In this document: in pieces, positions 46,309-63,203 of the stretch
How positions within the stretch are numbered: the first letter of the stretch is position 1
Layout of the letters: every line of letters starts with the position of its first letter
NCBI GenBank assembly: GCA_035764725.1
Contig: DASTYT010000051.1
Span: 4,603 to 68,602, forward strand
From: Candidatus Methylomirabilota bacterium
Lineage (GTDB): Bacteria; Methylomirabilota; Methylomirabilia; Rokubacteriales; CSP1-6
Length of the DNA: 64,000 nucleotides
Reading direction: 5' to 3'
Program-made: the position numbers and the translations under genes
The notes under the pieces: generated by a model
What the model was told of the DNA's origin: nothing
What the model saw: only the letters and a program-made list of their open reading frames with translations
The model's database searches: none

Positions 46309-47544
46309 ATGAAGTCGATGACCCGCCGCAGCTTCCTGGCCGCCAGCGGTGCCGCCGCCGGCATGGCGGCGACCCAGGGATTCTTCCCCGCCGTACTCCG
46401 CGCGCAGAGCGATCCCATCCGGATCGGTTGCCCCCTCCCGCTCACCGGCCCCTTCGCCGCGCTCGCCGCCGACATGCAGCGCGGCGCTCAGCTCGCCCAG
46501 GATGAGATCAATGCCAAGGGCGGCGTGATGGGCCGCAAGGTCGAGGTGCTGTTCCGCGACGACCAGCTCAAGCCCGCGGTAGGCGCCCAGCGCACGAAGG
46601 AGCTGATCGAGAACGAGAAGGTGCAGTTCGTGGTGGGCGGCCTCGCCGCGCACGTGCAGATGGCCATCAACGAGCAGACCAAGAAGTCCAAGGTGCTGTT
46701 CATCTCCACCAGCCAGTCCGACGAGATCAGCGCCAAGCCGGACACCAGCAACATCACCTTCCACGAGGCGCTCAATCCCACGATTACCTCGCGGGTGATG
46801 GGCAAGTGGACGTGCGACAACCTCGGCAAGAAGTGGTGGATCATCTACGCCGACTACGCCTGGGGCAAGCAGAACAACCAGGTGCTCACCGACACGCTCA
46901 AGGCCAACGGCGGCACCCTGCTCGGCTCCACGCCGTACCCGCTGGGGAGCGCGGAGTTCTCCGCGCATCTCCCGAAGATCCAGGCGGCCAAGCCCGACGT
47001 GCTCATGTCGGTGACCCCGGGTGCGGACAACATCGCGTTCCTCAAGCAAGCGCGGAGCTTCGGGATGGACAAGCAGATGAAGCTCGCCCAGCCGCTGCTG
47101 TGGATTTCCTATCTCAAGGAGGGTGGCCCCGAGCTCTACCAGGACGTGCACGGCGCGCTCAACTGGTATTGGGAGCTGCAGGAGACGATCCCGACGGCCA
47201 GGAAGTTCGTCGAGGCGTCCATGAAGAAGTTCAACATGCCGCCCGGCGACTACGGCGCGTACTCGTACTCCGGCGTCCTGGAAGTCGCGCGCGGGGTGGA
47301 GCTGGCCAAGTCCACGGACTCCTTCGCGGTGGCCGACGCCCTGCGGAAGAGTCCCACCTACGACCACTTCAAGGGCAAGCAGTGGTGGCGGGCGTGCGAC
47401 AACAAGTCCTTCCAGGACATGTGGATCGTGAAGGGGCGCGGCCCCGGTAAGACCAAGGGCGAGTGGGGCCTCGCCGACATCGTGGCTCGCGTGCCGGCCG
47501 ACGAGAAGTACGATCGCACCTGCGCCGAGAAGGGGTTCGCATGA
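46309..47544 (+). CDS. Branched-chain amino-acid ABC transporter substrate-binding protein (LivK/LivJ-like, PBP1), Tat/Sec signal
   Basis: 411 aa. Signal MKSMTRRSFLAASGAAAGMAATQGF. Leu/Ile/Val-binding-protein fold. AAAGGAGA RBS. Confidence 0.8.
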   Translation: MKSMTRRSFLAASGAAAGMAATQGFFPAVLRAQSDPIRIGCPLPLTGPFAALAADMQRGAQLAQDEINAKGGVMGRKVEVLFRDDQLKPAVGAQRTKELIENEKVQFVVGGLAAHVQMAINEQTKKSKVLFISTSQSDEISAKPDTSNITFHEALNPTITSRVMGKWTCDNLGKKWWIIYADYAWGKQNNQVLTDTLKANGGTLLGSTPYPLGSAEFSAHLPKIQAAKPDVLMSVTPGADNIAFLKQARSFGMDKQMKLAQPLLWISYLKEGGPELYQDVHGALNWYWELQETIPTARKFVEASMKKFNMPPGDYGAYSYSGVLEVARGVELAKSTDSFAVADALRKSPTYDHFKGKQWWRACDNKSFQDMWIVKGRGPGKTKGEWGLADIVARVPADEKYDRTCAEKGFA

Positions 47545-47654
47545 AGTGGATTGGCGAGGCGCAGCCGAAGGCGAGCCGAGCGGATATGGTAGTGGGTGCC
47601 GAGCGGAGCGAGGGCGGCGAGGCGCAGCCGAAGGCGAGCCGAGCGGATACGTAG
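47541..47654 (+). CDS. Small ORF (37 codons) between livK and livH carrying an internal exact 34-bp tandem duplication (peptide repeat GEAQPKASRAD x2)
   Basis: ATG overlaps the livK stop (ATGA). The TAG lies 3 nt before the livH ATG. ~80% GC3. Coding status uncertain. Confidence 0.3.
   Translation: MKWIGEAQPKASRADMVVGAERSEGGEAQPKASRADT
47553..47649. repeat. Two exact copies of the 34-bp direct repeat GGCGAGGCGCAGCCGAAGGCGAGCCGAGCGGATA, period 63 bp (29-bp spacer)
   Basis: Seen directly in the livK-livH intergenic region (copies at 47553-47586 and 47616-47649). Only two copies. Confidence 0.8.
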
Positions 47655-47656
47655 AC

Positions 47657-48532
47657 ATGGATTTGGCCGCCATCCTGCCCCAGGTGTTCACCGGGCTCGT
47701 GCTGGGGATGATCTTCGTGCTGCTCGCGATCGGGCTCTCCCTGATCTTCGGGCTCATGACGGTGGTGAACTTCGCCCACGGCTCGCTCTACATGCTGGGC
47801 GCGTACTTCACGGTGTTCCTGCTCGCGTACACCCGGAGCTTCTGGGTGGCGCTGGTGGTGGCGCCGATCCTGGTGGGGGTTCTCGGGTTCGCGATCGAGC
47901 GGCTGCTCATCCGGCGGCTCTACGGTCGCGGGCCCGACGACCCCCTGCTGCTCACCTTCGGGCTCTCGCTGGTGCTCATCGAGACGGCCAAGCTCATCTG
48001 GGGGAAGATCGGGCTCACCCTCGATCCGCCGCGCGCGCTGGCCGGCGCGGTCGACCTCGGCTTCATGGCATTTCCCGTCTATCGCCTCTTCGTCATCGCG
48101 GTCACCATCGTCGTGCTCATCGGTCTCTGGGCGTTCGTGAACCGCACCAACGTGGGCCTGATCATCCGTGCCGGCTCGCGCGATCCGCTGATGGTGCGGG
48201 CCCTGGGCGTGGATCTCAATCGGATCTGGCTGCTCGTGTTCGGCGTCGGCTGCGGCCTGGCCGGACTCGCGGGCGCCCTTGCCGGCCCCATGCGGGGCGC
48301 CTACGCCGACATGGGCGTGACGATGATCATCGAGTCGTTCGTGGTGGTGGTGGTGGGCGGCATGGGCAGCCTGCTGGGCGCGGTGGTGGCGGGCATCATG
48401 ATGGGGCAGGTGGTGGGCATCACGACCCTCTTCGCCCCCAAGCTCGCCGAGATCATGGTCTTCGTCGTGATGGCGGTGGTCCTGCTGATCCGGCCCAGCG
48501 GCATCTTCGGCGAGGCCGGACTCGCGGAGTAG
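47657..48532 (+). CDS. livH: Branched-chain amino-acid ABC transporter permease LivH
   Basis: 291 aa from MDLAAILPQVFTGLVLGMIFVLLAIGLSLIFG (conserved LivH N-terminus). Confidence 0.85.
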   Translation: MDLAAILPQVFTGLVLGMIFVLLAIGLSLIFGLMTVVNFAHGSLYMLGAYFTVFLLAYTRSFWVALVVAPILVGVLGFAIERLLIRRLYGRGPDDPLLLTFGLSLVLIETAKLIWGKIGLTLDPPRALAGAVDLGFMAFPVYRLFVIAVTIVVLIGLWAFVNRTNVGLIIRAGSRDPLMVRALGVDLNRIWLLVFGVGCGLAGLAGALAGPMRGAYADMGVTMIIESFVVVVVGGMGSLLGAVVAGIMMGQVVGITTLFAPKLAEIMVFVVMAVVLLIRPSGIFGEAGLAE

Positions 48533-48536
48533 GCCG

Positions 48537-49493
48537 GTGCGGACTGTCACGAGATGGGTGGCGCGCCACCCGGTCTTCGCCTTCGCCCTCGTCTTCGCGG
48601 TCTTTCCGTTCGTCGTCCCCTACAAGGCCCTCGCGGCGCAGGTGCTGATCTTCGGGCTCCTCGCCATGGGCTTCAACCTGCTCTACGGCTACACCGGGCT
48701 CCTGTCCTTCGGCCACGCCGCGTACTACGGGCTCGGCGCGTATGGCACCGGGCTCGTCCTCGCCAAGACGAAGCTCGGCTCGCTGTGGCTGGGCGTGCTC
48801 GCGGGCCCACTGCTCGCGATGGTCGGGGGCGCCCTGATCGGCTTCTTCTGCCTGCGCCGGCGCGGCATCTACTTCGCCATGCTCACACTGGCCTTCGCGC
48901 AGCTGCTCTACTTCGTAGCCTTCCACCTCGCCGATCTCACCGGCGGCGATGACGGGCTGCGCGGCATCCCTCAGCTGCCGCTCCGGCTCCTCGGGTGGAC
49001 GATTCCATTGGAATCGACCCTTGCCTTCTATTACTTCGCCTACGTGCTGGTAGTGCTGGCGGTGGCCGCGCTCAAGCGCATCCTCGACTCGCCCTTCGGC
49101 ACCGTGCTCCAGGCCATTCGCGAGAATCCCGATCGCGCCGCCGCCTGCGGCTACGACGTGAACCGCATCAAGCATCTCTCGTTCGTGTTCTCGGCGACCT
49201 TCGCGGGGCTCGCGGGCGGGCTTGACGCGCTCCGCCTCGCGGTGGTGCCGGTCGAGTCGCTGTACTGGACCACCTCGGGCCAGGTGGTCATCATGACGCT
49301 CTTGGGCGGGGCGGGGACGTTCTTCGGGCCCTTCGTGGGCGCGGGCACTTACCTCGTGCTGGAAGACCGCCTGAGCGTCTTCACCGAGTCGTGGCCCCTC
49401 GTCATCGGCCTCATCTTCATGGCGTTCGTCCTGTTCCTGCCCAAGGGCATCTGGGGCACGCTGGTCGGACGCCTTCCCATTGGGAGGATCTGA
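48537..49493 (+). CDS. livM: Branched-chain amino-acid ABC transporter permease LivM
   Basis: 318 aa. LivM-type motifs (GYTGLLSFGHAAYYGLGAY). No ATPase genes follow. Confidence 0.85.
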   Translation: MRTVTRWVARHPVFAFALVFAVFPFVVPYKALAAQVLIFGLLAMGFNLLYGYTGLLSFGHAAYYGLGAYGTGLVLAKTKLGSLWLGVLAGPLLAMVGGALIGFFCLRRRGIYFAMLTLAFAQLLYFVAFHLADLTGGDDGLRGIPQLPLRLLGWTIPLESTLAFYYFAYVLVVLAVAALKRILDSPFGTVLQAIRENPDRAAACGYDVNRIKHLSFVFSATFAGLAGGLDALRLAVVPVESLYWTTSGQVVIMTLLGGAGTFFGPFVGAGTYLVLEDRLSVFTESWPLVIGLIFMAFVLFLPKGIWGTLVGRLPIGRI

Positions 49494-49494
49494 C

Positions 49495-49962
49495 ATGGCG
49501 ATCAAGGTGCTCGAGCTCCACCATCACGGCATTCGCGTCCGCCCGGAGAAGGCCGATGAGGTGAAGGCGTTCTACGAGGACGTGCTGGGTCTCAGCGCCG
49601 ATCCGGGCCGGCCGAACATTCCCGGCATCCCCGGCTACTGGATGGACTGCGGCAACGACACGCAGATCCACATCATGGGCTGCGAGGGGATGTCACGCTA
49701 CGCCCAGGGCAGCCCCGACAAGGATCCCACGCGCCTGCACGTCGCCCTCGCCATCCCCGACATCCAGGAGGCCAAGAAGGAGCTGGACCGGCTGGGCGTG
49801 AAGTACTGGACCATCAAGTCGGTGGTGGGCCCGGAGCTGGAGCAGATCTTCATGGACGACCCCAACGGCAACCTGGTCGAGCTCCATCAGATCGGCACCT
49901 GCCGATGCAAACAGTCGTCGCGCCCGTATCGAGTGACGCCGCCGGCCAGCATGGCCGGCTAG
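49495..49962 (+). CDS. VOC family protein (glyoxalase-like)
   Basis: 155 aa from MAIKVLELHHHGIRV. GGGAGG RBS. His/Glu metal ligands. Confidence 0.65.
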   Translation: MAIKVLELHHHGIRVRPEKADEVKAFYEDVLGLSADPGRPNIPGIPGYWMDCGNDTQIHIMGCEGMSRYAQGSPDKDPTRLHVALAIPDIQEAKKELDRLGVKYWTIKSVVGPELEQIFMDDPNGNLVELHQIGTCRCKQSSRPYRVTPPASMAG

Positions 49963-49965
49963 GTC

Positions 49966-51150
49966 ATGGCGGTTTCGGACAGCCAGACGGCCTACGTCGA
50001 GCGCATCGACGAGGTCACGCGGACGCGCATCGCGCCGCGGGCGGCCGCGTACGACCGCGAGGGCAAGAACCCCGTCGAGAGCTGGCGGGATCTCTGGCGG
50101 GCGGGTTTCCTCGCCGCCGCCGTGCCCGCCGCCTACGGCGGGCGCGGGCTCGACATGGGGACCTACATCGCCTGCCTCCGCGCCATCGCGCGCGGCTGCG
50201 CCAATACCGCCATGACCGTGCACATGCACTCCACGGTCATGCGCTTCATCGACGCCCTCTGCACCGACGCACAGAAGCGCCGGTACTACGCGGAGGTGGT
50301 GGACCACGGCAAGCTCTTCGGCTCCTGGGGTAGCGAGCCGGCGGTGAGCCTCTCGCGCACGTTCCAGATCGAGACGGTGGTGCGCCGCCGCGACGGCGGC
50401 TACGTGGTGGATGGTCTCAAGCACTTCTGCACCATGGCGCTCGGCGCCTCCTACTACATGGTCTGGTGCGCGCTCGACGGCGAGGCCGACATGTCGAAGG
50501 CGCTGATCCAGGTGCTGGTCCCGGCGGACAGCCCGGGCATCCACACCGACGGCAAGTGGGACACCCTCGGCATGCGGGCGACCTTCAGCCCGAGCGTGGA
50601 GCTCCGCGACGTGCGGGTGACGCCGGAGGCCCTCATGGGCGAGCCGGGCAATGCGCTCAAGGTCGGCGTCGTCGAGAGCTTTGCGTTGGGCTATGCCGCG
50701 GTGTACGTGGCGCTGGCCGAGGCGGCGCTCGCCTTCGCCATCGAGGCGGTGAAGAAGCGAGTGGTCAAGCCGGAGAACATCCCAGTGGCCCACGATCCCG
50801 CGGTCCAGCGTCACATCGGGGAGTTGGAGGCGCGTCTCCACGCGGTGCTGCTGGTGCTCGGGGATGCCGCTGCTCGCTGGGACAAAGCCGACATGCTCCA
50901 GCGGGGGCTCCTCGCCAATCGCGCCAAGCTCCTCGCGACCGAGGTGGGGCTGGCCGTGACCGGCCACGCCATCCAGACCGTGGGCGGCCGGGCCGCCTAC
51001 AAGGAATTTCCGGTGGAGCGCGCCTTCCGCGATCTCCGCACCGCGACCCTCATGCCGCCCACCATGGACCGGATGATGGAGGCCATCGGCAAGGCCGCGC
51101 TCGGCCTCGAGGCGGCGATGTTCCGCGTGGGCGGCGCGCCGAGCGCCTGA
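49966..51150 (+). CDS. Acyl-CoA dehydrogenase family protein
   Basis: 394 aa. ACAD N-terminal, middle and C-terminal domains (YGGRGLD..., GSWGSEP..., catalytic Glu region near the C-terminus). Confidence 0.8.
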   Translation: MAVSDSQTAYVERIDEVTRTRIAPRAAAYDREGKNPVESWRDLWRAGFLAAAVPAAYGGRGLDMGTYIACLRAIARGCANTAMTVHMHSTVMRFIDALCTDAQKRRYYAEVVDHGKLFGSWGSEPAVSLSRTFQIETVVRRRDGGYVVDGLKHFCTMALGASYYMVWCALDGEADMSKALIQVLVPADSPGIHTDGKWDTLGMRATFSPSVELRDVRVTPEALMGEPGNALKVGVVESFALGYAAVYVALAEAALAFAIEAVKKRVVKPENIPVAHDPAVQRHIGELEARLHAVLLVLGDAAARWDKADMLQRGLLANRAKLLATEVGLAVTGHAIQTVGGRAAYKEFPVERAFRDLRTATLMPPTMDRMMEAIGKAALGLEAAMFRVGGAPSA

Positions 51151-51155
51151 GCGGC

Positions 51156-52043
51156 ATGGGCGCAGTCGGCTTCGTGGGCCTCGGCGCCATGGGCACACCC
51201 ATGGCGAGGCGTCTCCTCGCCGCCGGGCACACCGTGACCGGGTACAACCGCACGCGGGCCAAGGCGGAGGCGCTGGTCCCGCTGGGCCTGCGCGTGGCCG
51301 GCTCCCCGCGCGAGGCCGCCGCGGCGGGCGACGCGGTGCTCAGCATGGTGACGGACTCGGAGGCCCTGCGCCGCATCGCCGAAGGCCCCGACGGCATCCT
51401 CGCCGGGCTCAAGCCGGGCGCGGTGTGGGCGGACATGAGCACGGTGAGCCCCGCCGTGTCGCGCGCGATGGGCGCGGAGGTGGCCGCGCGCGGCGCCGCG
51501 TTCCTCGACGCGCCGGTCTCGGGCAGCGCCGTCACCGTGGAGCAGGGGAAGCTCGCCTACCTCGTGGGCGGCGACACCGCCGCACTGGAGCGAGTGCGCC
51601 CCTATCTCCTCGCCATCGGCGCCACCATCACCCACATGGGCGCGCTGGGCATGGCGGTCACCATGAAGGTCGCGCTCAATCTCGGCATCGGCGTGCAGCT
51701 CACCGCCTACGCCGAGACGGTGCTCCTCGCCGAGAAGGCGGGCATCAGCCGCGAGCGCGCCGTGGAGGCCTTCGCCCGGAGCGTGCTCGCCTCGCCGATG
51801 CTTCAGTACCGGAGCACGTTCGTGCTCGCCTCGCCCGCCGAGCCCCTGTTCGACTGCGTGATGATGCAGAAGGATCTCGGCCTCGCGCTGGAGCTGGGGC
51901 ACGCGGCGGGCGTGCCGCTGCCCACCACCGCCATCGTCCACGAGCTGCTGACGGCTGCGCGGGCGCTCGGGCTCGGTGACCGCGACTGCGCGGCGGTGTT
52001 CGACGTGCTCGCGCGTCTCTCCGGCCAGCCGGGAAGCGTGTAG
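51156..52043 (+). CDS. NAD(P)-dependent 3-hydroxyisobutyrate/6-phosphogluconate-dehydrogenase-like oxidoreductase
   Basis: 295 aa. VGFVGLGAMGTPMARRLL Rossmann motif and HIBADH-family catalytic Lys region. Start by residue counting. Confidence 0.8.
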   Translation: MGAVGFVGLGAMGTPMARRLLAAGHTVTGYNRTRAKAEALVPLGLRVAGSPREAAAAGDAVLSMVTDSEALRRIAEGPDGILAGLKPGAVWADMSTVSPAVSRAMGAEVAARGAAFLDAPVSGSAVTVEQGKLAYLVGGDTAALERVRPYLLAIGATITHMGALGMAVTMKVALNLGIGVQLTAYAETVLLAEKAGISRERAVEAFARSVLASPMLQYRSTFVLASPAEPLFDCVMMQKDLGLALELGHAAGVPLPTTAIVHELLTAARALGLGDRDCAAVFDVLARLSGQPGSV

Positions 52044-52182
52044 TGCAGCGGCGTGTAGGACGCCGCCCTCGCTTCGCTCGGGAACCCATCATGTATCCGC
52101 TCGCCTCGCCTGCGGCTGCGGCTCGCCCATCTTCCTCCTCAAGCTCTTCCTGACGCCCACGCTGATCGCCTCGGCGAGCCTC

Positions 52183-52896
52183 GTGGGGCGGCGCTGGGGG
52201 CAGGGAGTGGGCGGGGTGATCGTGGCACTGCCTCTCACCTCGGGGCCCGTGGCCTTCTTCCTCGTGCTCGAGCACGGGCCGGCCTTCGCGGCGGGCGCGG
52301 CGCTGGGCTCGATGGCCGGCGCGCTCGCCCAGGGCGTCTTCTGCCTGGCCTACGCGGCGCTCGCCGCCCGCGGCTGGCCGCTCGCCTTCGCCGGCGGCAC
52401 GGCCGCGTTCGCGCTGGCGGGGCTCGTGCTGCAACGCCTCGCGCTGCGGCTCGGGACCCTCACCATCGTGGTCGCGGTGGGGCTGGTGCTCGCTCTCCTC
52501 GCGATGCCGCACGGCGAGGAGACGCGCCGCCCGGGCCCGCCACCGCGATGGGACATTCCCGCGCGGATGATCGTGGCGACGGTGCTCGTGCTCTCGCTCA
52601 CCGCCGCCGCCACGACCCTGGGGCCTCGCCTCAGCGGTCTCCTCGCGACGTTTCCGGTCTACGCCGGCATTCTCGCGGTATTCGCCCACGCCCAGGACGG
52701 CCCCGGCCCCGCGACGCGGGCGCTGCGGGGGCTCCTCGCCGGGCTCTTCAGCTTCGCCGCCTTCTTCGTGGTGATCGCCGCCCTGATCGAGCGGCTCGGT
52801 ATCGTGCCGGCCTTCGCCGCCGCATTCGTCACCACGCTCGCGCTCCAGGCGCTCGCCCTGGTGGTGATCCACGACCCGCCCACGGTGGCTGCCTAG
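52183..52896 (+). CDS. Hypothetical polytopic membrane protein (start uncertain)
   Basis: ~237 aa, 6-7 TM helices, high GC3. No ATG in the N-terminal region; the GTG at 52183 is the first plausible start. The real start may lie within 52044-52190. Confidence 0.4.
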   Translation: MGRRWGQGVGGVIVALPLTSGPVAFFLVLEHGPAFAAGAALGSMAGALAQGVFCLAYAALAARGWPLAFAGGTAAFALAGLVLQRLALRLGTLTIVVAVGLVLALLAMPHGEETRRPGPPPRWDIPARMIVATVLVLSLTAAATTLGPRLSGLLATFPVYAGILAVFAHAQDGPGPATRALRGLLAGLFSFAAFFVVIAALIERLGIVPAFAAAFVTTLALQALALVVIHDPPTVAA

Positions 52897-52899
52897 GCC

Positions 52900-53220
52900 T
52901 CAGCGGGCTGGATCGGCGGTCCCCGGCGCGCGCACCGCGACGCCATTGACCACACGCTGCACGCCGCCCACGCTCGCGGCGACGGTGCCGGCCCGCTCCC
53001 TCTCTTCGTCCGACCGGACGTCGCCGGAGAGGTACACGACCGCGCGCCGGCTCACCACGCCCAGCCGGGTGAGGTTCGCATCGGTCTCTGCGACCAGGCG
53101 GGCCTTCACCTCGCTCTCGATCCTGGCGTCCGTCCAGGGGCTCATGGTGGCGCAGGCCCCGAGAAGGAGAGCCACAGCGACGATCAGCGAGGCAATGAGG
53201 CGGCCGCGCATCGGCGTCAC
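52900..53220 (-). CDS. BON-domain lipoprotein
   Basis: 106 aa. Lipobox LLLGAC. BON-like region (VKARLVAETD..., VYLSGDVRSDEERERA...VQRVVNGVAV). Confidence 0.65.
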   Translation of the reverse strand: MTPMRGRLIASLIVAVALLLGACATMSPWTDARIESEVKARLVAETDANLTRLGVVSRRAVVYLSGDVRSDEERERAGTVAASVGGVQRVVNGVAVRAPGTADPAR

Positions 53221-56200
53221 TTCGAGCGCTCCCCGAGACCGAACGGCTCCAGGAGCCGGCGAATGGGGCTCGGCCGCGACGGCGCATCCGGCTCGAGCAG
53301 GGTCACGCGCACCTGGCCGGCGACCTCATCCCCATCCGTTGCCGGCTCGGCTCGGAGCCGTCCACCGTCGGCGCCCGCCTTCTCGATGCCCTTCTTGACC
53401 GCTTCCACACGCTTGGCGGCCAGCGTGGCAGGCTTCGTGCCGTCGAGCGCGGCGCGATCCGCCGCGGAGACCACGGGGACGAGCGCGAGCCGGACGTCCG
53501 GCACCTGCTCGAGGAACGTGGCCAGTCGCGTCACCTGCTCGTGAGCCTCTGGCGCCAGGACGGCGGAGCCCGCCGCGAACGGGACGGGGTTCACATCCAC
53601 CTGCTGAATCATCGAGTCGCTGCCCGTCCGGACCCGGCCGATCCAGCTGAGCGGTGCCGTGACGGTCTTGACGGCGACGTTGCGCAGCGTGCTCCAGAGC
53701 GCGTTCCTCATGTCGAAGTGTGGATCGTTCAACCGGCCGTCCACGGGCAAGGACACCCGGATGTCGCCGTGGCGATCCTTCATCAGGGCGACGATCGTAC
53801 CGAGAGGCAGGCCGATGCGCGCCTGTGCCTCGTCCGAGCCGGACACGCGGGCCACCTCGAGGCGCCGTATCAGAATCTCGGTCTTGGCGTCGAGCGCGTT
53901 GCCGTCGACATGGCAGCTGACGGTGGCGCTCAGGGAGCCGGAGCGTGCCTCCCACGCGACCTGCTGGAGCAGATAGGAGTTCGTCCGCGGCACCGCGAAG
54001 TCGTGCAGCTCGGCGCCGAGGTCGAGGCGGAGCGGCCCGCCCAGCGACCCCACGCGGCCGTTGACGACCAGGCGTGCATCGCCTCCCACACGTCCGACCA
54101 GCTCGACACGGGCCGGCCGCGCCGCCGGGTCGGTGGAAAGCCCCTCGACCCGGCCGTTCAGTGCGTACGTGTCCAGCGCGAACGGAGGCGCCACGCGCTG
54201 ATCGACGGTGCGAGCGCCGCCGTTCTCGACGGCTATACGACGAATCGTGAGGCGCAGCGGCTCCTCGTCGGACGACGTCGATACGTCCGACGGCGCGCCG
54301 GCGCGGCCGCTCCGGCGCGGGGCGAGCAGCGTCTTGAGCGACAGCTCCCCCTGGCGATCGCGCTCCAGCAGCACCCACGGGCGTTGCAGCGCGGCATCAC
54401 GGATGGTCACGCGGCGGGGCCAGTCGACGTCGACCCCCTCCGCCCGGGCTCGATCGACGCGGAGAAGGGTGCGCTCGCCGTCACGGACGTCGAGCCCCGC
54501 GGCCCCCGCCTCGCCGCGCGCCGTCACCCGTCTCGGCTCGCCCGTTCCCATGGCCACCGCGAGATCGAAGTCGACGCGGCCTCGGATTCGCGCGGGGATG
54601 TCCGCATATGCCAGATACGGGCCGACCTCCGTGCCTTGCGCCCGCGCGCGCCCCTCGATGGTGACCGGATCGAGCGCCACGCGTCCGTCGAACCCGAGCT
54701 GGCCGCCGCCGGGCGGTTGCCCCTGCACGCGTATTCCGAGCGGACCCTGGAAGGGCCAGGTCACCCCGGTGACACGAGCGGTGAGATCTGCGAGCTCGAG
54801 CGCGACAACGGGTTGAACGCTCTGATCGCGCCACGCCACGCGTCCGTCCTGCACGAGGATCTCGCCCACCGCGAGGGCGATCGAGGCCGCGTCACCCTTC
54901 CCCTCGCTCTTGCCGGGCGCGCCCGGGGTGGCCGGCGCCCCTGGCAGTACGAGCTGTCCCTCGCGATCCCGTTGGAGCGCGACGCGGGGTCCCGCGACGA
55001 TCAGCCGTCGTGCGGCGAGGTGGGGCCAGTCCGCCTCGATATCGCGCGCCTCGATCCGGCGCGCCCTCCCGAGCTCCATCGTCCCATCGGCGACGCCGAG
55101 CTGGCTCACGGCAACGTACCCCTTGACATGGCGCGGCACCGCCGGAGCCAGCGGCTCGTCGATGTGCAGGTCGGCCTCCGCGAATCCCTCGACGCGCATG
55201 GAGCCAGGCACCAGTCTCGCCCACGGGCGGAGATCGACGCGCGCGAGCTGAAGGCGCAGCTGGCTCGCCGCCGGGGGCGGGCTCAGGCTTCCACCCAGAC
55301 GAAGCGTGCCACCGCCGGGAACGCTGCTGCGAATGTCGAGGCGACCGGGCCGCACCACCGGCCAGGTCACATCGCCCAGGCTCGCCTGAAGCGTCGTCTG
55401 CTGGAAGCGGCCGCGGCCGCTCGGGGTGGGATCCTTCACGCTCGCCTCGCCCGCCACCTCGAGGCCGCCGATCTCGAGCTGATCCTCGCGGTACCGGAGG
55501 TCTCGGAACTCCGTGGTGAGACGAGGCACCACGACGGAGGGATCTTGCTCGCCGCGTCGCAGCAGCGCCACGTCCTCGATCCGGCTCGTCCCGTTCGCGT
55601 GCACGCCCTCCCGTGCGTCCAGGCGGACCCGCACCGTGGAGGTGGCGCGTCCCCGCTCCAGCACGAGCGCCGCGTCGGGCGGAACATAGAGGCGCGCCAG
55701 CGAGAGATCGAGATTCGAGGTCTCCACGACCGCCTCGAGGTGAATCGGGTAGAGGCGCACGTCGCGTAGCTCGAGCGAGGCCGGCGCGCCCACGGTCACC
55801 GAGCGCGCGATGGCCCGGCCATCGTTGCGACGGGTGGAGAGGTTGTGGCCCTCGATCTCGATCTGCTCCGATGTCCAGGTCCGCGGCTCGGCCAGCGCCC
55901 GGTCCTCGAGGGCGGCGCGGCTCGCCGTGACGACGAGGTGATCCACCGTCACGTCCAGGAATCGGCGGCTCGACGAAGGCCCCTCGAAGAGATCCGCGAT
56001 GTTGAACCCGTCGGCGAGCCGCACGATGCGCACCGCCGAGCCCTCGATCCGCGCTTCGCGGAGCCACAGGTGACCCCGGAGAAGGGCCCAGGGACGGAGG
56101 CGGAGCTCGACACGATTGACGTCGACGAAGGGTGAGACGCCGTCCCGGTCCTGCATGCTGAGGCCGCGGACGACGATGCTGGCCCGGAACGGATCGAGCT

Positions 56201-56375
56201 GGACAGCCTCGACGCGCACGGGCCGATGGGAGATCGCATGGATCCGCGCAATCAAGAGGTGTCGAAACAAGACGGGCGATGCGTAGGCAGCCGCCAGCAT
56301 CAGCAGTGCCAAGACGACGCCCGTGACGACGAGCCACCGAACAGACCTCGAAGATCGCGCTGGCATCCACCGCAT
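53217..56375 (-). CDS. AsmA/DUF748-like giant envelope protein with N-terminal TM anchor and C-terminal OmpA-like domain
   Basis: ~1052 aa from MRWMPARSSRSVRWLVVTGVVLALLMLAAAYA (TM). Long beta-rich repeat-like body. C-terminal ~110 aa resembles an OmpA_C peptidoglycan-binding domain (FAAGSAVLAPEAHEQVTRLATFLEQVPDVRLALV...AAKRVEAVKKGIEKAG). ATGA-like 4-nt overlap with the BON gene. Confidence 0.6.
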   Translation of the reverse strand: MRWMPARSSRSVRWLVVTGVVLALLMLAAAYASPVLFRHLLIARIHAISHRPVRVEAVQLDPFRASIVVRGLSMQDRDGVSPFVDVNRVELRLRPWALLRGHLWLREARIEGSAVRIVRLADGFNIADLFEGPSSSRRFLDVTVDHLVVTASRAALEDRALAEPRTWTSEQIEIEGHNLSTRRNDGRAIARSVTVGAPASLELRDVRLYPIHLEAVVETSNLDLSLARLYVPPDAALVLERGRATSTVRVRLDAREGVHANGTSRIEDVALLRRGEQDPSVVVPRLTTEFRDLRYREDQLEIGGLEVAGEASVKDPTPSGRGRFQQTTLQASLGDVTWPVVRPGRLDIRSSVPGGGTLRLGGSLSPPPAASQLRLQLARVDLRPWARLVPGSMRVEGFAEADLHIDEPLAPAVPRHVKGYVAVSQLGVADGTMELGRARRIEARDIEADWPHLAARRLIVAGPRVALQRDREGQLVLPGAPATPGAPGKSEGKGDAASIALAVGEILVQDGRVAWRDQSVQPVVALELADLTARVTGVTWPFQGPLGIRVQGQPPGGGQLGFDGRVALDPVTIEGRARAQGTEVGPYLAYADIPARIRGRVDFDLAVAMGTGEPRRVTARGEAGAAGLDVRDGERTLLRVDRARAEGVDVDWPRRVTIRDAALQRPWVLLERDRQGELSLKTLLAPRRSGRAGAPSDVSTSSDEEPLRLTIRRIAVENGGARTVDQRVAPPFALDTYALNGRVEGLSTDPAARPARVELVGRVGGDARLVVNGRVGSLGGPLRLDLGAELHDFAVPRTNSYLLQQVAWEARSGSLSATVSCHVDGNALDAKTEILIRRLEVARVSGSDEAQARIGLPLGTIVALMKDRHGDIRVSLPVDGRLNDPHFDMRNALWSTLRNVAVKTVTAPLSWIGRVRTGSDSMIQQVDVNPVPFAAGSAVLAPEAHEQVTRLATFLEQVPDVRLALVPVVSAADRAALDGTKPATLAAKRVEAVKKGIEKAGADGGRLRAEPATDGDEVAGQVRVTLLEPDAPSRPSPIRRLLEPFGLGERSK

Positions 56376-56544
56376 GTGACGGATGTTGACGCATCGGCCG
56401 TGCCACTCCCGCAGGACCCGAATCGCGACTCGACGGTGCCTTTCGTGACGAACGGACGACGCACGCGGGAGGCGAACGGGTACGATCTGCCGGGACCTGT
56501 CAAAAAGTACCCGGTGGACGGCATCGCCGCCCACCGCCGCGAGG

Positions 56545-56724
56545 CTAGGCCTCGTATTCCCGGCTGACCTCGACGGCGGTCTCGCCGTCGTCGTCGATCA
56601 CGAGGGCGATGACGTTCGGCCGGCAGCACACCGCACAGTCCTCGGTGAAGCGCTGCCGCCGTCCGCCGCTGGGATCGACGTCGAGGTGGTTCTCCTCGCC
56701 GCAGAAGGCGCAGGTGTAGGTCAC
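56545..56724 (-). CDS. Unannotated CPxCG-related zinc-ribbon protein (59 aa; VTYTCAFCGEENHLDVDPSGGRRQRFTEDCAVCCRPNVIALVIDDDGETAVEVSREYEA)
   Basis: Not in the ORF track (<60 aa). GTG start 13 nt after the livF stop. Motif CxxCGE...DCxVCCRP...DDDGE matches the small Cys-rich CPXCG family. High GC3. Confidence 0.55.
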   Translation of the reverse strand: MTYTCAFCGEENHLDVDPSGGRRQRFTEDCAVCCRPNVIALVIDDDGETAVEVSREYEA

Positions 56725-56737
56725 GTTCGGCGCCGGG

Positions 56738-57453
<716 letters not shown>

Positions 57454-57457
<4 letters not shown>

Positions 57458-58200
57458 CGGGTCGACCCGAGATAGGTCTGCTGCACGAGCGTGTTGGCTC
57501 GGATCTCGGCGGGCGAGCCCTCGGCCAGGACCTGCCCCTGGTGCAGCACGGTGATGCGGTCGGAGATGTTCATGACGACCTTCATCTTGTGCTCGACCAG
57601 GATGACGGTGCGGCCGTCGGCGATCTTCCGGATGAGGCGGATGGTCTCGTCGGTCTCCTCCGGGCTCATCCCCGCGGTGGGCTCGTCGAGAAGGAGCAGC
57701 GAGGGCTCGGTGGCCAGCGCGATCCCGAGCTCCAGGTGGCGCTTCTCCCCGTGCGAGAGCTGGGCGGCGGTGAGCATGCGCTTCTCCCACAGCGCGACTT
57801 CGTGGAGGATGGCCTCCGCCCGCTCCCGCACCCCGTCGAGCGACGAGGCGCGCGCCCAGAAGTTGAACGAGTGGCGGTAGGATTGCACGGCCACCCGGAC
57901 GTTCTCGAGCACGGAGAGATGGGGGAACACGTTGGTGATCTGGTAGGACTTCGAGACGCCGAGGCGGGACACGCGATGCTGGGGCATCCCGGTGACGTCC
58001 TGGCCCTTGAAGCGGATGCGGCCGCTGCTCGGCACCATCTCGCCGGAGATCAGCCGGAAGAAGGTGGTCTTGCCCGCGCCGTTGGGACCGATGATGGCGC
58101 GGAGCTCGCCGGGCGCCACCGCGAAGTCCACCGCATTGACGGCGGTGAGGCTGCCGAAGCTGCGGGTGAGCTTGCTCGTCTCGAGAATCAACTCGGCCAT
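57454..58200 (-). CDS. livG: Branched-chain amino-acid ABC transporter ATP-binding protein LivG
   Basis: 248 aa from MAELILETSKLTRSFG. Walker A GPNGAGKTT, LSHGEKRHLELGIAL, LivG-specific insertion. Confidence 0.85.
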
Positions 58201-58271
58201 GTGGCGGCGGGGCGTAACATAGCAGCCCGTTTTTCCAGGTGTCAAGGTAGACTTCCCGCGGACTTGGCCCG

Positions 58272-59132
58272 ATGAAACCGGCGCCCTTCGCGTATTGCCG
58301 TCCCGCCACGCTCGACGAGGCGCTCGAGTCGCTCGCGCGGCTCGGCCCCGAGGCCCGCGTGCTCGCCGGCGGGCAGAGCCTGGTCCCCGCGCTCAACATG
58401 CGCCTCGCCCAGCCCTCCGCCCTCGTCGACATCAACCGCGTGCCCGGGCTGGACGGGATCCGCCTGGCGCCCGAGGGCCTCGTGATCGGCGCTCTCGCGC
58501 GCCAGGAGGCGGTGCTGCGCTCGCCGCTCGTCGCGCAGCATGCTCAGCTGATCGCCCAGGCCATGCCCCACGTCGCGCACCTCGCGCTGCGGACGCGCGG
58601 CACCTTCGGGGGCAGCCTGGCCCTCGGCGATCCCGCCGCCGAGCTGCCGGCCTGCGCGGTGGCGCTGGACGCCATCCTCCGCGTGGCGCGACGGGCCGGC
58701 GAGCGCGAGATTCCCGCCGCGCGCTTCTTTCGCGGCATCTACGCGACCGCGCTCGAGCCCGGCGAGATCCTGACCGCCGCGGTGTTTCCGACGCGGGCGG
58801 CGGCGTGGCGCTTCCACTTCGACGAGCTGGCGCGGCGCCACGGCGACTACGCCCTCGTCGCCCTCGCCGCCGCCGCGCGTGTCGACGGCGGCGCGATCGC
58901 GGAGGCGCGGCTCGTCTTCGCGGGGGTGGGGCTCACGCCGGTGCGGGCGACGCGCGGCGAGGCGGTCCTGGCGGGCCGACACCCGGACGCGGCCACGCTC
59001 GCCGAGGCTGGGCGCGCGCTCGATGCCGACCTCGATCCGCCGAGCGACGTGCACGCCAGCGCGGCCCTACGTCGCCACCTCGCCCGGGTGCTGATGGCGC
59101 GCGCGCTGGCCGCCCTCGTGACGGGCGCGTAA
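58272..59132 (+). CDS. Xanthine dehydrogenase/CO-dehydrogenase-family FAD-binding medium subunit (CoxM-like)
   Basis: 286 aa. FAD_binding_5 motifs (VLAGGQSLVPALNMR, GTFGGSLA) and CO_deh_flav_C. Confidence 0.85.
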   Translation: MKPAPFAYCRPATLDEALESLARLGPEARVLAGGQSLVPALNMRLAQPSALVDINRVPGLDGIRLAPEGLVIGALARQEAVLRSPLVAQHAQLIAQAMPHVAHLALRTRGTFGGSLALGDPAAELPACAVALDAILRVARRAGEREIPAARFFRGIYATALEPGEILTAAVFPTRAAAWRFHFDELARRHGDYALVALAAAARVDGGAIAEARLVFAGVGLTPVRATRGEAVLAGRHPDAATLAEAGRALDADLDPPSDVHASAALRRHLARVLMARALAALVTGA

Positions 59133-59136
59133 GGCG

Positions 59137-59631
59137 ATGGACGCCCGCCACGAGGTCGAGATCGCGCTCATCGTCAACGGCGTCGCCGTCCGCCGGCGGG
59201 TGGAGGCGCGCAAGAGCCTCGTCGACTTCCTCAGGGAGGACCTCGAGCTGACCGGGTCGCATGTGGGCTGTGAGCACGGTGTCTGCGGCGCCTGCACGCT
59301 GCGGGTGGACGGGGCCCTCGCGCGCGGCTGCCTCATGCTGGCTGCGCAGTGCGACGGCAGCCGGGTGGAGACCATCGAGGGCGTGGCCGCCTCCGGCGAG
59401 ATCGCGGATCTGCAGCGCGCCTTCGCCGAGGCCAACGCGCTCCAGTGCGGCTTCTGCACGCCGGCCATGCTCCTCACCGCGGACGCCCTCCTGCGCGACG
59501 ATCCCGCCCTCGACGCGGCGTCGGCGCGCCGCGGCCTGTCGGGCAACTACTGCCGCTGCACCGGCTACCACGCCATCGTGGAAGCCGTCCTCACCGCCGC
59601 TCGCGTGCGCCGGGAAGCCTCGCATGGCTGA
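59137..59631 (+). CDS. (2Fe-2S)-binding small subunit of a molybdenum hydroxylase (CoxS-like)
   Basis: 164 aa. Plant-type ferredoxin motif CEHGVCGACT and second cluster motif CGFCTPAM...CRCTGY. Confidence 0.9.
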   Translation: MDARHEVEIALIVNGVAVRRRVEARKSLVDFLREDLELTGSHVGCEHGVCGACTLRVDGALARGCLMLAAQCDGSRVETIEGVAASGEIADLQRAFAEANALQCGFCTPAMLLTADALLRDDPALDAASARRGLSGNYCRCTGYHAIVEAVLTAARVRREASHG

Positions 59632-62002
59632 CGCGCCCGCGCGCATCCCCGAGGGCGAGAGCTACATCGGCCGCAGCATCGTGCGCCCGCAGGCGGCGCG
59701 CCTCCTGGCCGGGCGGGGGCAGTTCACCGACGATCTCCACCTCCCGCGCATGCTCCACGCGGCCTTCCTGCGCTGCCCGCACGCCCACGCCCGCGTGGTG
59801 TCCCTGGACGCGCGCGCCGCCGCGTCGCTCGCGGGTGTCGTGCGGGTGATTGCGGGCGACGAGATGGCGAGCGTCTGCGCGGGCTGGGTGGGTACCCTGG
59901 CGCACTTCCAGGGCATGAAGTCGGCGCGCCAGCATCCGCTCGCCCGCGGGCGCGCGACCTGGCAGGGGGAACCGGTGGCGGCGGTGGTGGCGGAGAGCCG
60001 TGCGCTCGCCGAGGACGGGGTGGCGCGCCTCGCGGTCGAGTGGGCTCCGCTGCCCGCGGTCACCGACGCCGAGAGGGCGCTGGCCCCGGAGACGCCGGTG
60101 ATCCATCCGGAGCTCGGCGACAACCTCGCGTTCTCCCTCGAGCTCGAGTCCGGCGATCCCGACGGCGCCTTCGCGGGCGCCGATCACGTGTACCGCGACA
60201 CCTTCTGGATGGGCCGCCACACCGGCGTCACGCTGGAGCCGCGGGCCATCCTCGCCGACTTCGATCCCACCGAGCGCCGGCTCACCGTGTATCACTCGTT
60301 CCAGGCGCCGAACATGATGCAGGACATCCTCGCCCGCCATCTCGCGCTGCCCGAGGAGAACGTACGGGTGATCTGCAAGGACGTGGGCGGCTCCTTCGGC
60401 ATCAAGGTCCACATCTATCCCGACGAGATGGCGACCTGCGCCCTGGCGGTGCTGCTGGGCCGGCCGGTCAAGTTCGTCGCCGACCGCCTCGAGTCGTTCC
60501 AGTCGGACATTCACGCGCGGGATCATCGCGTCACCGCCGAGGTGGCGGTGCGGCGCGACGGTACCATCCTCGGCATGCGGGTCGACGATCTCACCGGCAT
60601 CGGCCCCTACTCGGTGTACCCGCGGACCAGCGCGGTGGAGGGGAACCAGACGGTGAGGCTCACGCCGGGCGTCTACCGCTTCCGCAACTACGCGGCCCGG
60701 CTGCGCGTGGTCTTCCAGAACAAGACGCCGATGTGCCAGTACCGCGCGGTGGGTCACCCGGTCGCCTTCGCGGTCATGGAGGGCATGGTGGATCGCGTGG
60801 CGCGGGAGCTGGGGCTCGATCCCGTGGAGGTGCGGCGGCGGAACTACGTCACGGCGGAGATGTACCCCTACACGTCGCAGACCGGCTACTTCTTCGAGCG
60901 CCTGTCCCACGAGGAGTGCCTCGACCGCCTGCTCGCGCTCGCGAGCTATCGCGCGCTCTGCGCCGAGCGCGACGCCTTGCGCGCCCGCGGCGTCTACCGC
61001 GGTCTGGGCCTCTGCGCCTTCATCGAGCTGACCACCCCCGGGCCCGCCTTCTACGGCGTGGGCGGGGCCCGCATCTCCTCACAGGACGGCTGCACGCTGA
61101 AGCTCGAGCCCAGCGGCGCGGTGACCTGCACCACCGGCGTCACCGAGCAGGGGCAGGGAACCGACGCCATGCTCGCGCAGGTGGTCGCGACCGCGGTGGG
61201 CGTGCCGATCGAGCGCGTGCGCGTGCTCACCGGCGACACCCTCGTGTCGCCATACGGCGGCGGGACGTGGGCCTCGCGGGGCGCCGGGATCGGCGGCGAG
61301 GCGGCGCTCCAGTCGGGCAAGGCGCTCAAGGCGAACATCCTCCGCGTCGCCGGCGCCATGCTCCAGTGCGAGCCCGACGACCTGGACCTCCGCCGCGGCA
61401 AGGTGGTCGACGCGGCCAGCGGCGAGGTGCGCTTCGATCTCGCCGAGCTGGGGCGGGTCGCCTACTTCCGGCCCGATACCCTGCCCAAGGATTTCCAGGC
61501 CGAGCTGACGGTGACCCGGCACTACGTGCCGCGCCACCAGGGCTTCGCCTTCACCAACGGCATCCAGCTCTCGCACGTCGAGGTCGACGTCGCCACCGGC
61601 TTCGTGCGGCTGCTGGGCCACTGGGTGGTCGAGGACTGCGGCCGCATCATCAACCCGCGGCTCGTCGACGAGCAGCTCCGCGGCGCCATCGTGCAGGGCA
61701 TCGGCGCCGCGCTCTTCGAGCACTGCGTGTACGACGACGCCGGCCAGCTCCTCACCGGGACCATGGCCGACTATCTCGTGCCCATGGCCGCCGAGATGCC
61801 GGACATCGTGGTGGGGCACGTCGAGACGCCGACCGCGTTCGCCGAGGGCGGGTTCAAGGGCGCGGGAGAAGCGGGCACGGCGGGCGCGCCGGGCGCGGTG
61901 CTCAATGCAGTCAACGACGCGCTCGCGCCGCTCGGCGCGCGGGTCACGCGCCAGCCCATCACGCCGGAGGTCGTGCTGCGCGCGCTGGGAACCCTCGCAT
62001 AA
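59624..62002 (+). CDS. Xanthine dehydrogenase/CoxL-family molybdopterin-binding large subunit (coxMSL gene order, non-canonical active-site loop)
   Basis: 792 aa. 8-nt overlap with the small subunit. Loop MCQYRAVGHP aligns where form I has VAYRCSFR and form II AYRGAGR, so it is neither a bona fide CO dehydrogenase nor a classical XDH. Start by residue counting. Confidence 0.85.
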   Translation: MADAPARIPEGESYIGRSIVRPQAARLLAGRGQFTDDLHLPRMLHAAFLRCPHAHARVVSLDARAAASLAGVVRVIAGDEMASVCAGWVGTLAHFQGMKSARQHPLARGRATWQGEPVAAVVAESRALAEDGVARLAVEWAPLPAVTDAERALAPETPVIHPELGDNLAFSLELESGDPDGAFAGADHVYRDTFWMGRHTGVTLEPRAILADFDPTERRLTVYHSFQAPNMMQDILARHLALPEENVRVICKDVGGSFGIKVHIYPDEMATCALAVLLGRPVKFVADRLESFQSDIHARDHRVTAEVAVRRDGTILGMRVDDLTGIGPYSVYPRTSAVEGNQTVRLTPGVYRFRNYAARLRVVFQNKTPMCQYRAVGHPVAFAVMEGMVDRVARELGLDPVEVRRRNYVTAEMYPYTSQTGYFFERLSHEECLDRLLALASYRALCAERDALRARGVYRGLGLCAFIELTTPGPAFYGVGGARISSQDGCTLKLEPSGAVTCTTGVTEQGQGTDAMLAQVVATAVGVPIERVRVLTGDTLVSPYGGGTWASRGAGIGGEAALQSGKALKANILRVAGAMLQCEPDDLDLRRGKVVDAASGEVRFDLAELGRVAYFRPDTLPKDFQAELTVTRHYVPRHQGFAFTNGIQLSHVEVDVATGFVRLLGHWVVEDCGRIINPRLVDEQLRGAIVQGIGAALFEHCVYDDAGQLLTGTMADYLVPMAAEMPDIVVGHVETPTAFAEGGFKGAGEAGTAGAPGAVLNAVNDALAPLGARVTRQPITPEVVLRALGTLA

Positions 62003-62039: not shown

Positions 62040-63203
62040 ATGGCGGGGCCAGCGCCGCAGGGGCCGGGAGGCCAGCCCTCGTTCTTCCGCAAGCCGCCCG
62101 AGCCATCCTCCTCCGGATCCGCGCCGCCGGCGCCGTCCGTCGTGACGCCTCCGCCGCCCGCGCCGCCGTCCGGAATCACGCCGCCCCCGCCGCCGCCTCC
62201 GGTGATCGTGCCGCCGCCGCCTGCGCCGCGGCCCAGCGAGCCGCCGCCTCCGTTCGCGGGGGGCGAGACGCATCGCTTCGTCTTCCACGGACGGGGCGGG
62301 TCGCTGTTCGGCATTCACATCGTCAACGTGCTCCTGACCATCGCCACCCTCGGCGTCTACTATTTCTGGGGCAAGACGCGGGTGCGGAAGTACGTCTGGG
62401 GGCAGTCGGAGATCGCGGGCGATCGGTTCGCCTATCACGGCACGGGGCGCGAGCTCTTCCTCGGCTTCCTGAAGGCCATGCTCTTCTTCTTGCTGCCGCT
62501 CTACCTCCTGTACCTCCTGCGAGCGTTCGCCCCCTGGGTGGCCCTCAAGGTGGTGGCGACGGTCCTCAGCTCCATCATCGCGACCGTGTTCCTGCCCCTC
62601 GCCATCGTGGGCGCGCGCCGCTACCGGCTGAGCCGCAGCTCCTGGCGCGGCATCCGCTTCTCGTTCCGCGGCTCGGCGTGGGAGTTCGTCAAGTTCTTCA
62701 TCGTCAACACGCTGCTCGTCTCGCTCACGCTGGGCCTCTGGTACCCGGTGCTCGACGTGGGCCGTCACGCCTTCCTCACCCGTCACTCGTGGTTCGGCAA
62801 CCGCAAGTTCGACTTCGACGGCACGAGCGGAGGACTCTTCGGCCGCTTCGTGCTCAGCCTCGTCCTGACCCCCTTGACGCTGGGGCTCTGCTGGTTCTGG
62901 TATCTCGCGCGCAGGCGTCGCTACTTCTGGGAGCACACCACGTTCGGCGCCGCACGCTTCCGTAACACCACGCGCGGCGGTCCCCTTCTATGGCTGATGC
63001 TCGGGAATTTCATTCTGCTCATCGTCACGCTGGGGCTCGGCTGGCCGTGGGCCCAGGTGCGGTCGGCGCGCTTCCTGGCGCGCAACCTCTCCCTGGTGGG
63101 AGCGCTCGACCTCGACACGATCCAGCAGGACGCGCGCGCTGCCTCGACCACCGGCGAGGGTCTCGCCGGTCTGCTCGACGTCGGCACCCTCGACCTCGGC
63201 TAG
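62040..63203 (+). CDS. DUF898 (YjgN-like) family inner-membrane protein with Pro-rich N-terminal region
   Basis: 387 aa. N-terminal PPPPAPPSGITPPPPPPPV tract, then DUF898 signature (RFVFHGRGGSLFGIHIVN...YFWGKT; repeated half with RFSFRGSAWEF). Confidence 0.65.
   Translation: MAGPAPQGPGGQPSFFRKPPEPSSSGSAPPAPSVVTPPPPAPPSGITPPPPPPPVIVPPPPAPRPSEPPPPFAGGETHRFVFHGRGGSLFGIHIVNVLLTIATLGVYYFWGKTRVRKYVWGQSEIAGDRFAYHGTGRELFLGFLKAMLFFLLPLYLLYLLRAFAPWVALKVVATVLSSIIATVFLPLAIVGARRYRLSRSSWRGIRFSFRGSAWEFVKFFIVNTLLVSLTLGLWYPVLDVGRHAFLTRHSWFGNRKFDFDGTSGGLFGRFVLSLVLTPLTLGLCWFWYLARRRRYFWEHTTFGAARFRNTTRGGPLLWLMLGNFILLIVTLGLGWPWAQVRSARFLARNLSLVGALDLDTIQQDARAASTTGEGLAGLLDVGTLDLG

Follow-up and report, generated by a model that had tools for sequence, protein, structure and literature searches.

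A PF14255 small-protein gene next to livF in a Methylomirabilota contig, and what its gene order can say about function

In a stretch of 64,000 nt from a Candidatus Methylomirabilota bacterium (contig DASTYT010000051.1, positions 4,603 to 68,602; hereafter the window), a short reading frame lies directly behind livF, the second of two genes coding for ATP-binding cassette (ABC) ATPases. Two questions arise from this locus: whether so short a frame is a gene, and whether its place behind livF tells anything about the role of its product. Our results showed that the frame is a gene under purifying selection, that it is already a known and named member of the family PF14255 (Cys_rich_CPXG, called Zn_ribbon_21 in newer releases), and that its adjacency to livF is a recent, lineage-specific rearrangement. 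Taken together, we consider it rather probable that the small protein is an ordinary PF14255 member encoded by a real gene, whose recent livF neighbour is an unreliable guide to function.

A short reading frame that is a gene

The frame opens on the minus strand with a GTG (56724..56722), separated by 13 nt from the livF stop codon TAG at 56740..56738, and its 59 codons end at a TAG (56547..56545). Its translation, V/MTYTCAFCGEENHLDVDPSGGRRQRFTEDCAVCCRPNVIALVIDDDGETAVEVSREYEA, agrees exactly with that given by the initial annotation, a reading of the sequence that had drawn attention to the locus. The existence of such a frame is in itself no evidence of a gene, because frames of 59 codons are abundant by chance at the G+C content of the window (70.5%), and in the ORF (open reading frame) listing over 7 kb, the interval 53000..60000 was overlapped by 51 ORFs of at least 40 aa. 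The G+C fractions at codon positions 1, 2, and 3 were 0.68, 0.46, and 0.93, which resemble those of the real genes of the window and not those of shadow ORFs. The product matched PF14255 with 67.8 bits against a gathering score of 25.2 (E = 7.6e-19), and the alignment of protein residues 3-53 to model positions 1-51 of 52 covers the full length of the model. Thus, the proposed placement in the CPXCG family was borne out.

Conservation points the same way. The ratios of nonsynonymous to synonymous substitution (dN/dS), calculated by the Nei-Gojobori method between the window ORF and ungapped homologous ORFs in the fetched loci, lay between 0.15 and 0.3 for the nearest relatives, with 0.53 as the highest value among the 45 pairs listed. 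A word-indexed search recovered 395 close homologues, nearly all of 59-62 aa, and an exhaustive profile search found that 1676 representatives of 50%-identity clusters match the family profile. Most homologues carry PF14255 alone, and the window protein is likewise a stand-alone domain of 59 aa. The homologues start at the same M/V-T-Y position, which supports the GTG start. No second PF14255-type gene was found in the window. Neither of the two outcomes that the initial annotation had named as speaking against it, the absence of a family match and the absence of a conserved frame, was observed. The alternative of a chance ORF in high-GC DNA, favoured by the richness of the window in ORFs of such length, is virtually without probability and already refuted by the full-length Pfam match, the coding-like G+C pattern, the dN/dS values well below 1, and the many homologues and cluster representatives.

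The initial annotation had called the gene unannotated, which is true just for an ORF track with a length cutoff above its size. The GenBank protein HEU5189829.1 is identical to the small protein and already bears the family name, and gene callers had predicted the small gene on 10 public contigs. The names attached to the closest hits indicate a Rokubacteria-type member of the Methylomirabilota. The locus illustrates well how a real small gene can be lost to a length cutoff; as a named member of a known family, whose sole oddity, the livF coupling, is a recent local rearrangement, it has little discovery value. A separate naming oddity was observed in a 59-aa family member (P0280), which is called "ABC-type glutathione transport system ATPase component" by JGI; this name is probably an annotation artefact of a chance likeness of SGGRRQR...DD to the ABC signature and Walker B motifs.

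Gene order in relatives and transcription with livG and livF

Two scans yielded 160 loci, comprising 80 genome loci and 80 more diverse metagenome loci. Three gene orders were found at one chromosomal spot, which is anchored by a convergent operon for a binding protein, LivH, LivM, a glyoxalase, an acyl-CoA dehydrogenase, a dehydrogenase, and the 229-aa protein p229. In the first order, found in the window and in locus L013, a coxM gene points away from the co-oriented genes livG, livF, CPXCG, DUF748, and BON; the small protein of L013 shares about 90% identity with that of the window by count and 88% by tblastn, with a synonymous divergence (dS) of 0.31. In the second order, on contigs with P0271 (52 of 58 residues identical), TetR, CPXCG, DUF748, and BON follow one another, with the DUF748 and BON genes seen in L175 only, since L176 and L177 end just beyond the small gene. 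In the third, on contigs with P0274, P0007, and others (79-86% identical), TetR is followed by CPXCG, which is directly convergent with p229. The TetR stop and the small-gene start overlap by 4 nt in both the second and the third order, and members of the window protein's own 90% cluster are preceded by TetR at this locus. A window-type livF gene lay directly upstream in L013 only, among the 160 loci.

The neighbours were also diverse across both surveys. Upstream of the small gene in the genome loci, 70 Pfam families were found, including SDR (14, mostly divergent), MR_MLE (9), FKBP (6, divergent), Dus (3), and TetR (3), and downstream there were 79 families, including RF-1 (8) and RimK-like (4). 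The metagenome loci had 113 neighbours of 127 families, with radical-SAM genes of cyanobacteria (7) and SDR (5) at the top, and ABC_tran was not among the 25 neighbour families listed for them. Because the orders differ at the same spot and the neighbours vary in this way, PF14255 is a family without a conserved gene partner, and livF came to lie beside the small gene through a recent rearrangement in this lineage. The livF coupling as a conserved trait therefore fell away, as it is absent across the family and even among the closest relatives.

Some arrangements recur within single clades. At 68-75% identity, nine of the 80 genome loci have the order MR_MLE-CPXCG-ArfB, in which the small gene either overlaps the RF-1-domain gene by 4 nt or is separated from it by a short gap. 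A conserved partnership with ArfB was considered and rejected as clade synteny: the RF-1 gene, which codes for about 140 aa, was found at nine of these 80 loci, all but one of them labelled Rokubacteria/Methylomirabilota, and the 25 neighbour families listed for the more diverse metagenome loci do not include RF-1. In these Rokubacteria loci, the small-gene stop overlaps by 4 nt or just precedes the RF-1-domain gene, which codes for an ArfB-like ribosome rescue factor. RF-1-adjacent loci are L009 (6001..6605), L019, L021, L024, L026, L028, L037, L040, L063, and L073, often with MR_MLE upstream. Cyanobacterial members (L084, L085, L088, L157, L107, L111, L122, L125) lie between a radical-SAM gene of about 545 aa and an SRPBCC/polyketide-cyclase-like gene, an order also present in Tolypothrix (PMC9679502); this is a phylum-specific arrangement. 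In addition, L013, L017, L024, and L025 have Rokubacteria-like sequence and synteny, and their metagenome-assembled genomes are labelled Verrucomicrobiia, Nitrosocosmicus, Actinomycetota or Acidoferrum, which are probably binning or labelling errors.

In the window, the small gene appears to be transcribed with its two upstream neighbours. The initial description of these as an ABC ATPase pair was correct: by Pfam and NCBIfam they are LivG/UrtD-type and LivF/UrtE-type (Table 1), and both qualify as HAAT-type ATPases by an ABC_tran domain, the branched-chain C-terminal motif, and LivG/UrtD and LivF/UrtE as best models. The NCBIfam scores fall under the equivalog cutoffs, so a substrate is not assignable to the pair from these scores. 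The end of livG and the start of livF overlap by 4 nt. A promoter-like site, the sole match in 2.6 kb with 0.1 expected from shuffles, sits in the 71-bp divergent gap between livG and the coxM-like gene, and a terminator-like element, likewise the sole one, begins 8 nt past the small-gene stop, where the minimum free energy of the 53-nt stretch 56547..56495 containing the hairpin is -24.1 kcal/mol. The suggested co-transcription with livG-livF fits the spacing and these sites, and the small gene is probably the last, 3'-terminal gene of a livG-livF-CPXCG transcription unit, as far as sequence signals can tell. No obvious Shine-Dalgarno sequence was found in the 13-nt gap, and the small gene would therefore probably be translated by coupling to livF or by re-initiation after it. 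L013, which represents one other species, has the same 13-nt spacing.

Just downstream of the hairpin, an intergenic block at 56479..56503 on the minus strand, TTGACAGGTCCCGGCAGATCGTACC, is conserved with L013 (TTGGACCGGTCCCGGCAGATCATACC), unlike the hairpin itself. The block overlaps the T-run of the terminator-like element and may be a promoter or operator of the DUF748 gene.

The protein, its proposed working, and alternative readings

In an alignment of 52 diverse PF14255 members, the columns C5, C8, C30, C33, and P36 were invariant, and G9, D17, G21, Q24, E28, D29, and C34 were conserved in at least 90% of the sequences. The window protein has all of these residues and matches the framework C-x2-C ... 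C-x2-C-C-x-P. The CPxCG-type spacing put forward by the initial annotation led to the right family; the literal motif is missing, as the first knuckle reads CAFCG in the window protein and its clade. The column of the proline is occupied by A, P, G, E, and others across PF14255, so that this proline does not define the family despite its name. The window protein has a net charge of -8 and an isoelectric point of 4.2, and across 60 family representatives of 55-75 aa the net charge averages -7.9. C-termini in the family are usually acidic and often aromatic (EYEA, EYEG, EFEG, AELE), with a variable last residue (E in 20, G in 15, and A in 8 of the 60 representatives). The window protein ends in EYEA, and within its clade the E-Y-E tail is invariant and the final A nearly so. 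Thus, in size (about 60 aa), stand-alone form, acidity, and invariant residues, nothing essential separates the window protein from PF14255; from other members it differs by the lineage-specific livF gene order, and CAFCG is common to its clade and many others.

An AlphaFold2 model built from a 21-sequence alignment was confident and all-beta, with five strands and two cysteine knuckles (mean predicted local distance difference test score 85.6). Sequence and profile searches of the PDB gave no related solved structure, with matches to single zinc knuckles alone at E of at least 0.005 (rubredoxins, Rpo12, LysW, and C2H2 fingers), and Foldseek against the PDB gave nothing below E 0.37. Because no specific relative emerged from these searches, the predicted fold is best described as that of a small zinc ribbon of generic type, containing a three-stranded sheet. 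PADLOC gave no match and PHROGs no significant match for the protein, and Rfam and tRNA scans of the whole window gave no matches. The literature search found no paper on PF14255 function; the term "CPXCG" turns up haloarchaeal zinc fingers, NblD, and annotation tables.

On these grounds, the product would be a cytoplasmic, strongly acidic zinc-ribbon protein of 59 aa, in which C5, C8, C30, and C33 may hold one Zn2+, as the chemistry of the family suggests. The folded module, which would also include the acidic C-terminus, may bind a protein partner rather than nucleic acid because of its strong negative charge. The near-invariant loop D-x-S-G-G-x-x-Q and the knuckle E-D-C-x-V-C-C-R-P are the probable functional surface.

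Several points weigh against this picture and against the livF adjacency being of no account. The near-invariant fifth cysteine, C34, is unaccounted for by a plain Zn(Cys)4 site, and we infer zinc binding and protein binding from sequence features, as no experiment or solved structure was found for any PF14255 member. The terminator-like hairpin is degraded in L013 and the element is only partly conserved, so that read-through into the DUF748 gene is possible. In addition, the livF-CPXCG junction is kept in two species-level lineages at the divergence given above (dS 0.31), which is compatible with selection for co-expression.

One alternative, which we hold to be improbable, is that the product is a small factor responsive to nitrogen limitation and co-expressed with nitrogen-scavenging transporters. 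Expression of the Shewanella oneidensis gene SO_2297, to which PGAP gives the same family name, increases under nitrogen starvation from 3.4 to 39.4 fragments per kilobase per million (FPKM) (PMC11014242), and the window gene rides on a Liv/Urt-type ATPase operon. NblD, a small protein with a CPxCG-type knuckle, is also induced by nitrogen starvation in cyanobacteria (PMC7865187). However, the SO_2297 value is one low-count RNA-seq value from a distant relative and the sole expression datum found for PF14255, and it is a weak functional lead. NblD shares with the family its small size and knuckle, but by its published description it has cysteines at other positions (9, 12 ... 48) and a predicted helix, neither of which agrees with PF14255, and most PF14255 neighbourhoods are unrelated to nitrogen.

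A role of the small protein as an accessory or regulatory subunit dedicated to the LivG/LivF pair, for example in gating ATPase dimerisation, which would make the operon link functional, is quite unlikely. Such a role would agree with the tight 13-nt junction common to the window and L013, and with the promoter-like and terminator-like sites that bracket just livG, livF, and the small gene. The segment SGGRRQR...LVIDDD is also faintly like the ABC signature and Walker B motifs (NCBIfam OppD/GsiA, E 0.025-0.2; PDB Rv1281c, E 0.28). However, orthologues of 86-90% identity occupy the same locus and follow TetR, not livF, and among the 160 loci a livF-type gene is directly upstream in L013 only. 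The family profile aligned to the window LivF by hhalign with a probability of 0.5%. The candidate mimicry of the LSGGQ-Walker B region of OppD/GsiA by residues 18-54 was rejected as chance on this value and on a BLASTP E of 0.09 against LivF. A bolder reading, in which PF14255 was recruited in this lineage as a co-expressed LivG/LivF accessory or, more widely, the family is a LysW-like acidic zinc-ribbon adaptor tied to nitrogen limitation, is very unlikely; either version, if true, would give the first function for a family of more than 1600 sequence clusters.

There is little probability in the reading as a rubredoxin-like Fe(Cys)4 electron carrier for the nearby CoxMSL-like dehydrogenase and acyl-CoA dehydrogenase. 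In its favour, the product is small and acidic and has a CxxCG knuckle, redox enzymes are encoded nearby, and the PDB profile search matched rubredoxin knuckles at E 0.009-0.5. However, these matches span 12-19 residues of one knuckle only, the second knuckle is C-x-V-C-C-R-P and not CPxCG, and the family neighbours are not consistently redox enzymes. The Pfam scan of the small protein gave no rubredoxin match.

A LysW-like carrier would consist of a zinc-ribbon globule and an acidic C-terminal tail that receives a substrate from an ATP-grasp ligase; this reading has a very slight chance of being correct. The acidic, aromatic tail with its E-Y-E conservation in the clade resembles such a carrier, and in L046, L048, L049, L055, and L096 the small gene has a RimK/LysX-like ATP-grasp gene as its immediate neighbour. 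However, in these five loci the ATP-grasp gene is convergent with the small gene rather than in the same orientation, with an NlpC/P60 gene next after it, and the window neighbourhood has no ATP-grasp or lysine/arginine biosynthesis gene. LysW (PDB 3vpb_F, 3wwl_A) has an EDWGE-type tail ending in Glu and a LysX/ArgX ligase in the same operon, and the window protein has neither; its last residue is Ala, in a position that varies across the family. The hhalign probability was 9.6% over 11 aligned knuckle columns, LysW was not recovered by the Foldseek search, and the Pfam scan gave no LysW match. The resemblance to LysW is a lead and not a membership.

Likeness to other small zinc proteins is also limited. 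The haloarchaeal CPxCG micro-proteins Brz and HVO_2753 are small and have a CPxCG-type zinc knuckle (PMC2253796), and the likeness is at the motif level only; HVO_2753-like PDB chains matched the PF14255 profile at E 2.5. The delta subunit of sarcosine oxidase, SoxD (PDB 1vrq_D), shares 17% identity with the small protein, with no SoxD Pfam match and no soxABG genes nearby. The preferred reading is thus that of an ordinary PF14255 member. With 1676 clusters at the 50% identity level, PF14255 is a large family; its members are consistently acidic and share five conserved cysteines, no gene partner is conserved, and the family is a fair target for a first biochemical study, for which this window offers no special handle.

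Neighbouring genes in the window

The initial annotation regarded the ATPase pair as detached from its permeases. The permease genes are indeed not adjacent, but genes for a Liv-type binding protein and for two BPD_transp_2 permeases, with no ATPase gene of their own, lie a few kilobases away on the other strand (Table 1). Because of these genes, the LivG/LivF ATPases are not orphans, and the binding protein and permeases are their probable membrane partners, a pairing that we infer.

Table 1. Features of the window around the small gene, with positions counted from its first letter.
Feature	Position	Strand	Remarks
CPXCG / Zn_ribbon_21 (PF14255) gene	56545..56724	-	59 aa, GTG start, TAG stop
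LivF/UrtE-type ABC ATPase, 239 aa	56738..57457	-	Pfam ABC_tran; best NCBIfam models UrtE, LivF
LivG/UrtD-type ABC ATPase, 248 aa	57454..58200	-	Pfam ABC_tran and BCA_ABC_TP_C; best NCBIfam models UrtD, LivG
Sigma-70-like promoter match	58216..58245	-	TTGACA-18-TATGTT, with TG; consensus match only
Terminator-like element	56502..56536	-	11-bp GC-rich hairpin 56536..56512, then GGTAC and TTTTT
DUF748/AsmA-like gene, 1052 aa	53217..56375	-	169 nt downstream of the small gene
BON-domain gene	52900..53220	-	downstream of the DUF748/AsmA-like gene
Liv-type binding protein and two BPD_transp_2 permeases	46309..49493	+	no ATPase of their own; about 7 kb from the ATPases
Operon for binding protein, two permeases, glyoxalase, acyl-CoA dehydrogenase, 3-hydroxyacid dehydrogenase, and 229-aa protein	46309..52896	+	no ATPase genes
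229-aa protein p229	52207..52896	+	without Pfam or NCBIfam match
CoxM/S/L-like dehydrogenase operon	58272..62002	+	molybdopterin large subunit (xanthine dehydrogenase/CO dehydrogenase family) with FAD and 2Fe-2S subunit genes
Separate molybdopterin large-subunit gene	43443..45701	-	xanthine dehydrogenase/CO dehydrogenase family
DUF898 gene	~62202..63203		after the CoxM/S/L-like operon

The operon that begins with the binding protein is kept as a block in relatives and forms the syntenic anchor beside the small gene. Its p229 gene is present in all close relatives, where it is convergent with the small gene, and in the TetR-type loci the 3' ends of the two genes overlap by 4-23 nt. The window, L013, and L175 have the DUF748 and BON genes inserted between p229 and the small gene, and L005 and L172 lack both. 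On the other side, the CoxM/S/L-like operon is transcribed divergently from livG across the 71-bp gap.
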